The notes under the pieces: generated by a model
Seen by the model: the letters and a program-made list of their open reading frames with translations, nothing else
Database searches by the model: none
What the model was told of the DNA's origin: nothing
Program-made: the position numbers and the translations under genes
Assembly (NCBI RefSeq): GCF_049075655.1
Contig: NZ_CP157522.1
Span: 576,001 to 640,000 of the forward strand
DNA length: 64,000 nucleotides
Source of the DNA: Methanothermococcus sp. Ax23
Lineage (GTDB): Archaea > AGJL01 > Methanococci > Methanococcales > Methanococcaceae
Direction of reading: 5' to 3'
In this document: piece by piece, positions 1,257 through 64,000 of the stretch
Layout of the letters: every line of letters starts with the position of its first letter
How positions within the stretch are numbered: the first letter of the stretch is position 1

Positions 1257-2027
1257 TTATTGGTGGTTATATGATTTAAGCACTTCATCTTTTAGTTTAT
1301 CAACTATTTGTTTTTTATATTCTAAAAATTCCACAGTATTTCTCTTCCTAGGTCTATCTAAACTAATATCCACAATATCCTTTACTTTTCCCGGTCTTGC
1401 AGTCATTATAATTACTCTATCTGATAAATAAACTGCTTCTTCAACACTGTGAGTTATAAAAACTACGGTTTTTTTATCTTTTTCCCATATCTTTAAAAGT
1501 TCATTTTGCAATATTGTTCTTGTTTGGGTATCCAGAGCTCCGAAAGGTTCGTCCATCAGCACAATTTTTGGGTCATTTGCAAGGGTTCTTGCAATTGCCA
1601 CCCTCTGTTGCATTCCTCCACTGAGCTCATATGGGTACGCATCTTCAAAACCTTCCAAACCTATCATTTTTATAAACTTTCTTGCTACTTCATCCCTTTC
1701 TGCCTTTGGAACTCCTTTTATTTCCAAGCCGAAACCCACATTTTCCAAAACAGTTCTCCAAGGTAGCAAGGTATATTGCTGAAACACCATGCCCCGTTCT
1801 GCGTCGGGTTTTTCGATTTTTCTTCCTTCAATAAGTATCTCTCCAGAAGTGGGTTTTTCAAGCCCTGCAATCATCCTCAATATTGTGGATTTTCCGCACC
1901 CACTTGGTCCCACAATAGATAAAAATTCGTTGTTTCTAACTTCAAAATTTACATTATCTACTGCTAAAACTTCCTTTTTCTCCGTGATAAATTTCTTAAC
2001 AACATTTTTAATTTCCAATATCGCCAT
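1257..2027 (-). CDS. ABC transporter ATP-binding protein (nitrate/sulfonate/bicarbonate type)
   Basis: Walker A GPSGCGKST, LSGGMQQR signature, MDEPF; start moved to ATG 2027 behind GGTG SD. Confidence 0.93.
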   Translation of the reverse strand: MAILEIKNVVKKFITEKKEVLAVDNVNFEVRNNEFLSIVGPSGCGKSTILRMIAGLEKPTSGEILIEGRKIEKPDAERGMVFQQYTLLPWRTVLENVGFGLEIKGVPKAERDEVARKFIKMIGLEGFEDAYPYELSGGMQQRVAIARTLANDPKIVLMDEPFGALDTQTRTILQNELLKIWEKDKKTVVFITHSVEEAVYLSDRVIIMTARPGKVKDIVDISLDRPRKRNTVEFLEYKKQIVDKLKDEVLKSYNHQ

Positions 2028-2094
2028 AAAAACACCAATTAGCATTTTTTAATGCAGCAAATAAAATATATAAAATAAATATAAATTATAAACT

Positions 2095-2859
2095 TTATTT
2101 CATCATAGTTTTCCATTTGAAGTATCTATTTTCAATATATCTTAGCCCTCTGTCAAGGGTTAATCCTATCAATCCTATTATTACCATAGATGCCACAACG
2201 ATATCCATTTTACTAAGTGAATAGGCATACATAATTAAATATCCTAAACCAGCATCACTTCCTGGAAGCATCTCAGCCGCCACAACACACATCCAAGCTA
2301 TACCTGCCCCTACTCTCAATCCAGTTAAAATCCCCGGTGAAGATGCAGGAATAATAACTTTTAAAAGTATATCCTTTTCCTTAGCTCCTAATGTTTGAGC
2401 AGATTCTACAAGTATCTTTGGAACGCTTTTTACACCGGCAATTGTGTTTAGCAATATTGGAAAGAACGCACCGATGAATATAATAAACAGCATGGAAGTT
2501 TCCCCTATTCCAAACCATGCAAGAGCAAGTGGAACCCATGCAAGTGGTGGTATTGGTCGCAGGAGCTCCACAAATGTATCAAATAAATCATGAATTATTG
2601 AAAAATATCCCATCAATATACCAAGTGGCACAGCTATAATTCCTGCCACTAAAAAACCAGATAAAACTCGCTTAATACTAACAATCGTGTTATCCACAAG
2701 ATTTATCCCTGTTCCTAATATGGGGTTTTGGGGGTGCATTAAAACATTGATAACATCTTCCAATCTCGGCAATATAACAGGATTATTTAACCATATAGCC
2801 ACCCCTTCCCATAAAACAAGACCAAATATAGGTAAAACTAAATTTTTTATAAGTTTCAT
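2095..2859 (-). CDS. ABC transporter permease (SsuC/TauC type)
   Basis: LRPIPPLAW and EAA-like ESAQTLGA motifs, hydrophobic helices. Confidence 0.92.
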   Translation of the reverse strand: MKLIKNLVLPIFGLVLWEGVAIWLNNPVILPRLEDVINVLMHPQNPILGTGINLVDNTIVSIKRVLSGFLVAGIIAVPLGILMGYFSIIHDLFDTFVELLRPIPPLAWVPLALAWFGIGETSMLFIIFIGAFFPILLNTIAGVKSVPKILVESAQTLGAKEKDILLKVIIPASSPGILTGLRVGAGIAWMCVVAAEMLPGSDAGLGYLIMYAYSLSKMDIVVASMVIIGLIGLTLDRGLRYIENRYFKWKTMMK

Positions 2860-3062
2860 AAGCTACCTCCCATCTTTTGATTTAAAATTTAAAAATCGAA
2901 GCTTTGCTTCGTAGCGAAATATTATTTTACCAACATGTTAATTTCCTTGAAATCCTATTTATGATTTTATTTGATATTTATCTTATAATAAATATTATTT
3001 AAAAATATTTATTAAAATATTAAATAATTATAAATAATTATAAATAATTAAAAATAATAAAA

Positions 3063-60856: not shown

Positions 60857-60898
60857 TAAAATATAAAAATAATAAGATATAAAAAATAAAAATAATAC

Positions 60899-63800
60899 TT
60901 ATCCCATTTTAAAGAAATCTTCTATTTTTACCTGCTTATTCTTATCATTTTCAAATAAATTATCTATCCCTTCTTTAATTAATTCCAATCTCTGTTTTAT
61001 GTAATCACTTGCGTTGTATTTTTCAGCCATTTTCTGAGAAACCTCCATATATTTTTCCACAGCTCCCTTTGAAACTGTTAATATCAATTTACTACCACAT
61101 TTTGGACATGTTCCTTTTAATGGTATTCTTCTGAATTTTGCACCACATTTACATCTTACCCCCTGCCTTGAAAATGCTCTTAAATTTCCAATTAAATCAG
61201 GGACGAAATGAGATTGAATTACCTTTTCAGCAACGTCTCTTTCATCAGTTGCCCTTATTTTTTTCGCAACAGCCAATTGAGCCTCTGTTTTTTCAAGCAT
61301 GGAACCTAATGTTTTATATGCACAAACTAATGGTCCAACATCAACACTTGAAGTTTCATGGGTATATCCAATACCTTCATATTGGGATGGCGTGCCCAAC
61401 CTATCCTCAACGGTTTCTATTAGCTGTTTAACCTCCTTAGGAGATGGCATTTCAAGTGTTTTTTCGTAGAATTCCAATGGATACTCCCAAACTGTATCCA
61501 TGTTATGAACTTCTCCATCAACTTCTTTTGGGTCAAGAAGTGTGGTTAATACAAGAGGTGCATCCATTTGCCCCCCTCTTTTATCTGGCAAAAATCGTTT
61601 GGAGAAGTTTAGAAATGCGTCTAAAAGCAAGAATATACCGTCTTCGTCCCCATCACATTGGTATGTTTGAATATTTGAATTTATAACTATATTGTGATAC
61701 TTCTTTGCATTTAGCGAATATACAAATTCATCCTCTGCCTTAACGATGGTTTTATTTCTAACTCTCACTATCCATCCATAACTGCAATCATTGGAATATA
61801 TTGTTCGTCGGTGTTTATGGAGTTCATACACATTCTGCTTTTTAGAAGATGTAAATCCAATTTCCTTAAAGAACATATGATAAAATATTGAAGTTATATT
61901 TAATGCATAAATCTTTGATATAGGAGCTCTTGTCCCTCTATTGTCATGATATTTTTTTACAATTCCATTTCTTTCATTTGCATTTTTATCAACTGTAATG
62001 TATGTTCTAATTCCATACTTTGCATTTAATAGAGTATCAACATCGAATAGCAATTCCTTATTTACACTATATACGCTTACTCTTGGCGTAGTTTTTAATG
62101 CTGTTCCATCCCCTGTGAAGTATGTTGAAAGCATCAATTTAACCTTTTCCTTTGGAAGTTTGAATATAAATGAAGGCACTCTTTTATTGTGTGCATTTGT
62201 TCCTGTCTTCAATATCTCAGTGAATAGCAAATATATTATTCTTGAACCAACGGTTATTTTTCCGTCTTTTTCATATATTCCAAACCCATCTCCAAATGCC
62301 TCATTTAATGCATCTTTAAGGTCTTTATTTACTTCCTCATCGTAATTTGAGAAGTTTATTTGATAAACGCTATTGGTCTTTCTTATGTAGCCCTCTGCTA
62401 AATAATAGCCAATTATTTTTAATAACGGTTCGATTTTAATAATTCTTTTTATATTTACCTTGTCCCGTCTTACTGCAATAAATACATCCTTTGGAATATC
62501 AGATATATCTAATTCTGCATTTTTTAATATTTTTAACAGTAAATTCAATGGTATTGTGTCTTGTTTTATATATTTGGTGATATTTTTAATCAGTTTTCCT
62601 TTTCCCTTTTCATCCCTTTCTTTTAAACAGTCCTTTGGAATATTATTTTTTATCCAATCAGCTATTCCTCTAATTCTTATGAGCTCCCATATATGTTTAT
62701 ATTCTTCCTTTGAGAGCTCCGCCAACAAATCAATATATTCGATATCCTCTTCCTCAAAATCCAATTTTGGAATTAACATTAAGTCGTTTTCTTCAATATC
62801 CATTGCATTCTTTTTTATAAATTTATCCTCTTTTTCATCATATATCATTACTGGATGGTCTGGCGTGGTTTCAAAACTTCTTCCTGTGTCGAGCTCTATA
62901 TTTATAAGATGATTTGGAGATGGTATTTTTAAAACTTCCTCAATATCCGTTAAAACCATTTTTTTATTTAATGTGTCGAAGGAATAAACCTTAATATTTA
63001 GATTATTTTTTGGTTTATTTTTAATATATGCCATATTTTCATAATACTCATTGTCATATAAATTGTAGAGCTCCTCAATTGTAATTCTTTTTACTTCCCC
63101 ATTGATATTTACCAATATACTTGTATTTGGTGGGAAGCAGTTTCTTCTCTTTGATGCGTGGAAATATGGGTGAGCATATCCAACATTTGCCTTACAATAT
63201 CCAATAATTCTACCTACCATTCCCGCAGAAGTGTGCGGAGCCATTCCTATTACTAAATGTCCTATTAAGTCCTCTTTATTCTTTACATTGTAAAATCTGT
63301 CTGTTTTATAGAATTTTTCAAGTAAATCATCAATAAACTTCGTTGCATTTACAAAATACTCTGCACAAGAATTTGGAATGATTACATCCTGCACTTTTAA
63401 TTCTATCACTTGATTTTCATCAGTTATAGGATTACCGTATATATCTTTATCATATCCTAATTCCTTCAATTTTTCAATGGAAACATTTATTTCACAAGGT
63501 TTAAAATGAGTAATAGGCACATCTGTGCAGTCAAACCTAAGGGTTCCATCCTTAAACACAAATACATCATTCATTGCCCTTAATATACCCTTTTCAAGTG
63601 GTTCAACTATTTTATCCTTTGAAGTCATACCTTTAATGCACTTTACATCGCCCGGTTTATTTATTTTTAGATTTTCTAATGCCTTATACCAATAATCCTT
63701 TAACGGGAGCTCTATCCTATTGGGTCCCGATAATTCCACATGAGCTCCACAAAATGGACATTTGTTATATAAACTTATTTTTCCACATTTTGGGCATTTT

Positions 63801-64000
63801 CCAGAATATACCTCTACTGTATCAGTTTTTCCTTCCTCTACTGCTTTATTTATTAATCTAACAACGTTACCTGCATTTCCTATTGGGAAAAGACCATTTA
63901 CTGGCGGCTTCATTTTTCTTGCAGCAGCTTTTTCAGGTCGCCCCATACGAGCTCCCACATAAACATAGGCATTTCTTTTAATCTCAAATGGTGATAGTAA
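60899..64000 (-). CDS. polC: DNA polymerase D large subunit DP2 (5' end outside window), intein-containing
   Basis: [32 protein letters not shown]-terminal PIP-like QVKIEDFF. Confidence 0.95.
61658..63139 (-). mobile_element. 494-aa intein with LAGLIDADG homing endonuclease in DP2
   Basis: [10 protein letters not shown] start, TTPDHP block B, GYYLAEG and TYFTGDG endonuclease blocks, ends [10 protein letters not shown]. Confidence 0.93.

Follow-up and report, generated by a model that had tools for sequence, protein, structure and literature searches.

We analysed a window of 64 kb from the archaeon Methanothermococcus sp. Ax23 (the whole stretch from 576,001 to 640,000 of contig NZ_CP157522.1), in which the hexamer palindrome GAGCTC occurs exactly 100 times, i.e. 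about once per 640 bp, the first copy starting at 1535 and the last lying at 63949-63954. The genome, denoted G000 below, consists of a chromosome (C1) of 1,662,948 bp and a second contig (C2) of 7,732 bp, with a GC content of 31.9%. The original prediction held that GAGCTC, with about 100 copies in the window where about four are expected, is a highly iterated palindrome (HIP) and a candidate archaeal analogue of the cyanobacterial HIP1 (GCGATCGC). The excess is borne out by our data. Among 100 dinucleotide-preserving shuffles of the window the mean count is 3.90 (sd 1.84, maximum 9) and none reaches 100, and the base composition of the window (31.5% GC) predicts 4.6 copies, giving an observed/expected ratio of 21.6. 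GAGCTC is the top hexamer of the window by this ratio, and also by z under the maximal-order Markov model (68.3 expected, ratio 1.46), which for hexamers is of order 4 and already includes all 5-mers. The whole genome encodes 2089 copies (2085 on C1 and 4 on C2) against 124.7 expected, i.e. a 16.75-fold excess at 1.25 copies per kb; the genome-wide Markov ratio is 1.6, again with the top z, and the next-ranked hexamers, AGCTCC and GGAGCT, are only overlaps of GAGCTC. The enrichment thus survives the control for 5-mer composition across the genome.

The features of the window that bear on this palindrome are as follows, in order of position.

1535..63954, genes on both strands and intergenic DNA: the 100 GAGCTC copies (shuffles: mean 3.9, maximum 9)
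7411..7416, plus strand: frame-1 example, GGA-GCT-C, in the ribosomal protein S19e gene (7302-7745)
7891..7896, plus strand: frame-0 example, GAG-CTC, read as Glu-Leu, in the gene at 7720-8127
9970..11157, minus strand: TnpB (OrfB_IS605/Cas12f-like) gene with zero sites, in a site-free stretch (9685-12639)
13801..14712, plus strand: IS5-like DDE transposase gene with zero sites, in a site-free stretch (13322-16107)
41623..41628, plus strand: frame-2 example, ATG-AGC-TCC (xxG-AGC-TCx), in the gene at 40988-42214
46048..46401, minus strand: N-terminal fragment of HsdM, a type I methylase remnant, with zero sites
48307..48318, minus strand: Shine-Dalgarno-like GGTGA fused to a site (48310) and the start codon, GGTGAGCTCATG
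53308..53317, no strand: intergenic site (53310) within the 10-bp palindrome GGGAGCTCCC, flanked by the HerA gene and its neighbour
53346..53354, plus strand: GGTGAGCTC, upstream of the gene at about 53347-54207
60255..60634, plus strand: cluster of six sites in 380 bp, within an AAA ATPase gene (59738-60853)
61675..63100, minus strand: intein with splicing and LAGLIDADG domains and five sites, in the gene of the PolD large subunit (DP2), residues about 301-775

The sites are found in all three reading frames rather than in one, on genes of both strands and outside genes, as had been claimed from a few examples: our calls of open reading frames (ORFs) confirm frame 0 at 7891, frame 1 at 7411, frame 2 at 41623, the intergenic position of 53310 and the Shine-Dalgarno fusions at 48310 and 53349. 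These calls are crude but adequate; they comprise 1560 ORFs (minimum length 90 codons), which take up 85.9% of the chromosome. Genome-wide, 1097 sites are in frame 0 (Glu-Leu), 621 in frame 1 (xGA-GCT-Cxx) and 224 in frame 2 (xxG-AGC-TCx); 957 genic sites fall in plus-strand genes and 984 in minus-strand genes, and 144 sites lie outside the called ORFs. We also defined a strict non-coding set of 85,233 bases outside any six-frame open frame of at least 50 codons. This set has a GC content of 20.8% and holds 50 copies of GAGCTC against 1.56 expected (32-fold); for each of eight further hexamer palindromes matched in composition the count is zero or one.

A compositional or translational artefact, i.e. 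codon-pair bias, amino-acid content or a dispersed repeat, would be the simplest explanation of such numbers, and it is true that frame 0 is the commonest and that Glu-Leu (E-L) is a common dipeptide. We give this explanation practically no chance. Synonymous-codon shuffles within genes (30 replicates) yield 187 +- 14 sites against the 1942 observed, a roughly ten-fold excess that is seen in every frame: the shuffles give 79, 83 and 25 sites in frames 0, 1 and 2, so that the excess is 14-, 7.5- and 9-fold, respectively. GAG makes up 25% of the Glu codons and CTC 6.6% of the Leu codons in G000, and independent codon use predicts that GAG-CTC should write 1.7% of the 3931 E-L dipeptides; it writes 27.9%. 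These shuffles and the 32-fold enrichment in strict non-coding DNA rule out a codon or dipeptide artefact, and sister genomes of the same biology have no enrichment. A dispersed repeat or an extended motif is ruled out as well. The information is limited to the 6-bp palindrome, each flanking position carrying at most 0.22 bit, and the 8-mer GGAGCTCC is only 1.10 times its own Markov expectation; the G at -1 and the C at +1 of the sites probably derive from GGA-GCT-C codons. The hyper-abundance of GAGCTC is therefore a genuine property at the DNA level, and neither base composition nor codon usage nor a repeated element accounts for it.

Along the genome the spacing of sites is near-exponential, i.e. 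Poisson-like, with a mean of 797 bp, a median of 532 bp and a coefficient of variation of 1.09; there is a slight surplus of pairs 20-50 bp apart. Twelve of the sites outside ORFs sit 0-5 nt upstream of a start codon. The arrangement GGTGA-GCTC-ATG recurs in the window at 48307-48318 (minus strand) and 53346-53354 (plus strand) and at ten other genes, and in it GGTGA overlaps the palindrome and the palindrome abuts the start codon. Under the Markov model the second most over-represented word pair is CTGCAA/TTGCAG, with 53 copies against 33.7 expected in the window; genome-wide, TTGCAG has 856 copies where 637 are expected.

The places that lack GAGCTC are informative, too. We defined repeated DNA as self-matches of at least 300 bp and at least 85% identity, which amounts to 93.7 kb with 37% GC, and found 0.15 sites per kb there (14 sites) against 1.32 per kb in unique DNA. 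Each of the listed repeat blocks with at least two other copies, where the insertion sequence (IS) and TnpB elements fall, has zero sites; the sites in repeats are confined to blocks with one other copy, including two copies of 4.9 kb with two sites each, which we take to be the rRNA operons. Since repeat copies are not independent, the zero counts show a lack of enrichment and not avoidance. Mobile elements are many in G000: blocks of about 0.4-1.6 kb match 4-21 other places and include IS5-like DDE transposases and TnpB genes. The ten longest gaps between sites are islands of the flexible genome; they contain two glycosyltransferase/polysaccharide clusters (26-27% GC), a type III restriction system, transposases, chemotaxis receptors, the archaellum operon and ORF blocks with no Pfam match. 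The small plasmid C2, on the other hand, carries 4 sites against about 0.35 expected, by arithmetic from the genome-wide figures. Within the window, the site positions agree with the earlier observation of no site in the tnpB gene, the IS5 transposase or the hsdM fragment and of five sites in the intein, which lie at 61924, 62681, 62714, 62891 and 63068, i.e. within about 1.4 kb; the miniature element also named there was not located. The PolD DP2 gene interrupted by this intein lies at 60899-64000 on the minus strand (reading frame 60902-64000, to which the residue numbers of the intein refer) and runs past the window end, and the HsdM fragment (117 aa) is isolated between the genes of ribosomal protein L34e and a membrane insertase. 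The suggestion that the density of sites marks the residence time of DNA in the genome holds up in these comparisons, as the sites are absent from the IS and TnpB copies and the islands and abundant in the old intein and C2; site density behaves as a residence-time mark.

We compared 41 genomes, i.e. G000 and 40 relatives, and found that five of them are enriched in GAGCTC. The counts are 2089 in G000, 2070 in G012 (1.66 Mb), 1645 in G010 (1.57 Mb), 1321 in G003 (about 1.4 Mb, 90% complete) and 1515 in G013 (1.71 Mb), which belongs to a different genus. Among the other 36 genomes, 35 of two families hold 4-229 copies, and G040 of a third family holds 490, its control word having 340. A phylum-wide query revealed no enriched genomes beyond those among the 41. 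The observed/expected ratios in 400 kb samples are 21.8 for G012, 16.9 for G010 and 10.4 for G013, against 0.08 and 0.49 for the non-enriched G005 and G019. The enriched genomes do not form a group in a maximum-likelihood tree of the single protein GatE (30 of the 41 genomes; not a multi-marker tree). In this tree G013 is sister to a non-enriched genus and G010 branches next, and the group (G012,(G000,G003)) has a non-enriched clade of its own genus as sister, an arrangement that needs at least three changes of the enrichment state. Forcing the five enriched genomes together costs 44.5 log-likelihood units (approximately unbiased test, p-AU 0.0004), which rejects a single clade. Hence the trait has been gained or lost repeatedly, and the long stems on which the non-enriched clades sit fit losses.

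AGCT as a whole is avoided in the non-enriched members of the genus, e.g. at 0.14 of expectation in the 400 kb sample of G005. AAGCTT, used as a proxy of AGCT, has 12-33 copies per genome in G005, G008, G007, G002 and G001 of the same genus and in G015, whereas the enriched genomes of the genus have 253-325 and those of the neighbouring genus 545-795. An AluI-like pressure circulates beside the GAGCTC enrichment, and may have purged sites in the non-enriched clade.

The strength of the effect is best seen in codon choice. The tripeptides compatible with a frame-1 site, [GR]-A-[LPHQR], carry the site in 72% of cases in G000, 79% in G012, 59% in G010, 54% in G013 and 55% in G003, compared with 1.5% in G005 and 3.4% in G019. 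GAG-CTC occupies 17.5-28% of the E-L dipeptides in the enriched genomes against 0.1-0.5% in the others. Even the proteomes are affected: E-L dipeptides are at 1.14-1.25 of expectation in enriched proteomes against 0.93 and 1.12 in the others, and Ser-Ser (S-S) dipeptides at 1.22-1.33 against 1.03 and 0.96. Our data indicate that the force behind GAGCTC overrides codon preference and shifts dipeptide content.

The conservation of sites was assessed on codon-level alignments of orthologues. G000 shares 323 of 411 sites with G012, at 85.5% nucleotide identity, 111 of 405 (27%) with G010 and 90 of 411 (22%) with G013, compared with 1 of 341 with the non-enriched G005 and 1 of 210 with G019. At E-L dipeptides conserved between G000 and G012, GAGCTC is retained in 87% of cases, and GAATTA, GAACTT, GAATTG and GAGTTA in 64%, 56%, 44% and 38%, respectively. 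The odds ratio of sharing with G010 is 5.8, against 2.0-3.1 for three control codon pairs and 10.9 for a fourth. Sites are thus conserved between close relatives; at greater distance their positions turn over and the surplus of sharing wanes.

These figures bear on the possibility that GAGCTC is the binding site of an abundant chromatin, nucleoid or segregation protein and is kept by ordinary selection, as Xu et al. (2018) propose for HIP1 (PMC5861425). A palindrome would suit a dimeric DNA-binding protein, coding and non-coding DNA are both enriched, and the sites are conserved beyond neutral expectation, an argument that has been used for HIP1 (PMC5861425). We nevertheless consider this explanation unlikely. 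The spacing is random and no significant periodicity is seen at the kb scale, the periodogram maximum of 14870 being below the 95th percentile of 500 permutations (19000). The positional turnover is heavy, as G010 shares only 27% and G013 only 22% of the sites. Selection per site should be weak over about 2000 individually dispensable sites, yet 72-79% of the cheap positions are filled, and our searches found no candidate protein.

We next consider the direction of change, using the triplet G000, G003 and G012 (106 genes, 98 kb), in which the ingroup branches are of nearly equal length, with 4015 (G000) and 3715 (G003) substitutions. There are 76 sites in all three genomes. Among 123 ancestral sites, G000 has lost 8 (6.5%) and G003 39 (31.7%), while the loss rates over all hexamers are 19.1% and 16.6%, respectively; five GC-richer, non-overlapping control words show losses of 7-21% in G003. 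The lineage-specific gains number 20 in G000 and 4 in G003. A pairwise comparison of G000 and G003 over 236 genes gives 207 shared sites, 132 private to G000 and 25 private to G003. The private sites of G000 and G012 are symmetric (88 and 86, derived from the sharing counts). Most losses in G003 are single G:C-to-A:T transitions, and the divergence of their flanks is average. The force is therefore active in G000 and G012 and has lapsed in G003, and the existing sites in G000 are protected about three-fold better than the average hexamer. The sites in G003 revert faster than ordinary words, probably because they sit on disfavoured codons. In the triplet, G000 also has 1179 A>G and 919 T>C changes against 949 and 742 in G003 at similar branch length, which is a general AT-to-GC excess not limited to GAGCTC.

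One could ask whether the sites of G000 are a fossil, i.e. whether the generating process has stopped and they are slowly decaying. G003 proves that such decay is possible, and no determinant of the trait was identified. This idea is very improbable in our view, however, as the loss in G000 is one third of that of average hexamers (6.5% against 19.1%), 20 new sites stand against 8 losses, and the private sites of G000 and G012 are equally numerous.

The original prediction offered as a mechanism an AGCT or GAGCTC methylase combined with Vsr-like repair, and proposed to look for a methylase or Vsr gene distributed like the enrichment. We found no match in G000 to PF00145, the 5-methylcytosine (m5C) methylase family, in a profile search whose control was positive in 9 of 14 genomes, and no match to PF03852 (Vsr), for which the control was positive in 3 of 14. 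PF09566, the SacI-family endonuclease, has zero matches in G000, and here the control search also matched no genome. The DNA methylases of G000 are a 300-aa SPPY enzyme, a type III Mod, a type I HsdM (501 aa), a 567-aa enzyme of the Eco57I family and two large type IIG-like proteins. The SPPY methylase has a match in G003 at 92% identity that is interrupted by one stop codon, and further matches in seven genomes of a non-enriched family, six at 74-77% identity over near-full length and one in part; it was not found in G010, G012 or G013. The 567-aa enzyme, the one queried as a 974-aa sequence and the 1078-aa enzyme were not found in G010. We therefore rejected these four as the determinant, as their distribution does not follow the trait. 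Among G003, G010, G012, G013 and G005, PF00145 matches above the cut-off in G013 only. The most strongly enriched genome, G012, contains no DNA methylase of PF00145 or of PF01555, which rules out the type III Mod as a shared determinant, and the single detectable DNA methylase of G010 is a 453-aa PF01555 protein that is not in G000. Type I enzymes read bipartite sites. Overall, in the family scans and in protein searches with the SPPY, 567-aa, 974-aa-queried and 1078-aa enzymes, the five enriched genomes share no DNA methylase of PF00145, PF01555, PF02384 or PF02086.

The repair side gives a similar picture. MutS is found in none and NucS/EndoMS in one of the 23 genomes of the family of G000; being nearly absent family-wide, they do not discriminate enriched from other genomes and were rejected as the determinant. 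Either MutS or NucS is present in about half of the sister family, and the family of G000 yielded no known mismatch-repair system. At syntenic places we found 24 candidate genes missing from G003, and the 14 of them that were run against Pfam include transporters, a TPR protein, an MtrA paralogue, a transposase and an AlkD-like glycosylase. The AlkD-like glycosylase was rejected as well, as its family occurs in G000, G013 and four non-enriched genomes and not in G010 or G012.

If methylation and repair were at work, one-off variants of GAGCTC should be depleted, and no clear depletion was seen. GAACTC and GAGTTC, the deamination neighbours, are at 0.71-0.88 of expectation in the enriched genomes against 0.92-1.10 in G005 and G019, i.e. 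only about 20% lower; the outer variants are at 0.61-1.02 against 0.81 and 0.44 in G019 and hence not depleted relative to G019. AGCT outside GAGCTC is at 0.60-0.84 of expectation in the enriched genomes and at 0.65 in the non-enriched G019. This same level rejects a conversion of other NAGCTN sites into GAGCTC and indicates that the GAGCTC sites are extra rather than converted.

The model that Elhai proposed for HIPs, in which an orphan methylase marks the site (here GAGCTC or AGCT) and context-specific mismatch repair converts near-sites and protects sites, is thus distinctly improbable for our genomes. It can point to several facts. Elhai (2015) pairs each HIP with a methylase of its specificity and predicts about one site per kb (PMC4390886), close to the 1.25 per kb observed here; cytosine methylation at GAGCTC is known in nature (PMC9516812); GAACTC and GAGTTC are slightly reduced; and AGCT-directed restriction pressure circulates in the genus. 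Against it stand the absence of PF00145 and Vsr matches from G000 and the presence of PF00145 in only one of the five relatives scanned, a methylase repertoire that changes from one enriched genome to the next, the near-absence of MutS and NucS, the undepleted outer variants, and a spacing that is random and not even. We conclude that m5C methylation with Vsr-type repair is not supported as the mechanism, and that selection for a recombination, uptake or chromatin signal, the other option of the original prediction, is the better candidate.

Two observations on restriction in these genomes may be added. At G000:C1:1437541-1439159 the 300-aa SPPY methylase, which is N4-cytosine-like, is accompanied by a convergent and overlapping 245-aa ORF that has no Pfam or NCBIfam match; the two are a candidate type II restriction pair. 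The 74-77% identity of the methylase to genes of another family, together with its absence from closer relatives, suggests horizontal transfer. Furthermore, in the G000 genome and the 400 kb samples of G012 and G010, hexamers containing GATC are at 0.02-0.04 of expectation, and so are GTTAAC, GTATAC and GTCGAC (GTNNAC-type), CGTACG (GTAC) and CTTAAG; every palindrome containing ACGT has a count of 0 in the G010 sample. The avoidance is strong and bears the footprint of several restriction specificities.

Three accepted routes lead to the accumulation of a short word: biased uptake or recombination, as for the uptake signal sequences (USS) and DNA uptake sequences (DUS) of bacteria; context-specific mismatch repair, as with Vsr; and selection on many functional sites, as for Chi or structural signals. 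The gene content, with no shared methylase and no Vsr or MutS, speaks against the second route. The random spacing, the heavy turnover and the near-saturation of the cheap positions speak against the third in its classical form. The contrast between core and islands, the enrichment of C2, the effect on the proteome, the multi-step gains and the rapid collapse after loss fit uptake or recombination best. Our data establish a per-site, sequence-specific and lineage-specific directional force on double-stranded DNA, which acts in every frame and in non-coding DNA, needs none of the methylases searched and can be lost. We tentatively read GAGCTC as a DNA-level signal that is created and preserved by an active, site-by-site directional force, putatively through a factor that reads GAGCTC as a tag of self DNA, and we rate this reading as a whole somewhat short of an even chance. 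A putative protein would read double-stranded GAGCTC, probably as a dimer, and its gene would be an accessory one, carried by some lineages and lost by others. GAGCTC would then tag self DNA for uptake or recombination, tagged fragments or alleles would be preferentially taken up, kept or recombined, and the tag-bearing alleles would spread by molecular drive, as has been proposed for bacterial uptake sequences and lately for HIP1. Taken by itself, this last part, i.e. a self tag for uptake or recombination spread by drive, is a possibility that we think more apt to be wrong than right. It is ahead of a structural binding site and of methylation-linked repair, and the remaining probability falls to explanations that nobody has yet put forward.

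The traces of recombinational import fit such a process, with due caution. Among the gains in G000 with an unambiguous ancestor, 3 of 4 involve two or more substitutions, against 17.5% for control hexamers (p 0.019), and the flanks of the gains in G000 are more diverged (7.2% against 4.9% lineage-specific change, p about 0.03). Several points weigh against a self tag read by a dedicated protein. The two hints just given rest on 4 and 19 sites, respectively, and one outlier drives part of the flank signal. Neither a reader protein nor a co-distributed gene was found among the methylases, the repair genes and the candidates missing from G003 that we examined. The odds ratio of sites shared with G013 is 2.7, no higher than the 1.4-4.2 of control codon pairs, so that sharing does not establish that the trait arose once for all five genomes. 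The uptake sequences known so far are longer and lack palindromic symmetry, and a tag of just 6 bp gives weak discrimination. If Methanococcus maripaludis belongs to one of the non-enriched genera of our comparison, competence needs no tag. Finally, each enriched genome could carry a different methylase of one specificity, or a methylase of a novel family could be at work.

The function of HIP1 has been debated for thirty years, with methylation and repair, chromosome structure and transformation as the contending ideas. To our knowledge, all HIP examples so far come from one bacterial phylum, each with a cognate methylase. GAGCTC resembles them in many ways. HIP1 and the alternate cyanobacterial HIPs are likewise short GC-rich palindromes, over-represented tens-of-fold at about one copy per kb, and HIP1 is found in all frames and in non-coding DNA, is conserved beyond neutral expectation and is restricted to lineages with exceptions (PMC4390886, PMC5861425). 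The differences are also clear: GAGCTC is a hexamer and not an octamer, it occurs in an AT-rich archaeal host, the four methylase families searched gave no cognate enzyme (methylase specificities are not readable from sequence), outer one-off variants show no depletion, periodicity at the kb scale is absent, and the enrichment is limited to 5 of 41 genomes, whereas HIP1 spans most of a phylum. HIP1 has been described as periodic at 10-90 kb in 22 of 50 HIP1-rich genomes (Xu et al. 2018, PMC5861425). The proposed analogy to HIP1 is hence supported in four respects, namely hyper-abundance, frame independence, conservation and lineage restriction; three other traits reported for HIP1, a cognate methylase, the biased pattern of one-nucleotide variants and periodicity, were looked for and not found. 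The word 'archaea' is absent from the main texts of Elhai 2015 (PMC4390886) and Xu 2018 (PMC5861425), and open-access PMC and bioRxiv yielded no paper describing an enrichment of GAGCTC in Methanococcales or a HIP in any archaeon.

Accumulation by drive is an accepted model for USS and DUS. Like GAGCTC, the USS of Pasteurellaceae and the DUS of Neisseriaceae occur about once per kb in the core genome and are rare in recent arrivals; they are found in all frames, affect peptide content and are common to related species. Unlike GAGCTC, they are 9-12 bp long and asymmetric and have a known receptor or uptake bias, while no receptor was found here. Dcm/Vsr in Escherichia coli (CCWGG) likewise makes a short palindrome more frequent in a sequence-specific way, but its effect is modest and needs an m5C methylase plus Vsr, neither of which was found in G000 with its 17-fold excess. 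Restriction-site avoidance also ties the anomaly of a short palindrome to lineage-specific mobile determinants, with the opposite sign, i.e. depletion. Chi shares with GAGCTC that it is a short word in excess, and it labels self DNA for recombination, as is proposed here for GAGCTC; it differs in being asymmetric, orientation-biased and only a few-fold enriched. A recent preprint on HIP1 draws the parallel to Chi (10.1101/2024.09.10.611283), and recent work reports that HIP1 increases transformation and proposes that it serves as a signal for uptake (10.1101/2024.09.10.611283; PMC13756078).

GAGCTC is an archaeal highly iterated palindrome for which no matching methylase was found, and it works like a HIP or an uptake sequence outside the described families. 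The lack of a shared methylase in our searches sets the phenomenon apart from methylation. Enriched, non-enriched and freshly decaying genomes occur within one genus, which makes a clean comparative hunt for the determinant feasible, and the order includes genetically tractable and naturally transformable species, natural transformation being documented for Methanococcus maripaludis (PMC10133366). The case also shows how far a six-base DNA signal bends codon choice and even dipeptide content, and the absence of GAGCTC is a simple marker of foreign DNA in enriched genomes. We speculate, while thinking it somewhat unlikely, that GAGCTC could be the first tag of 'self' DNA in Archaea, a methylation-independent equivalent of DUS, USS and Chi that would spread by molecular drive among the chromosomes and cells of polyploid methanogens and whose reader would be mobile and easily lost. 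If this is true, the loss of the reader would let 1500-2000 tags revert to preferred codons within species-level divergence, as in G003.

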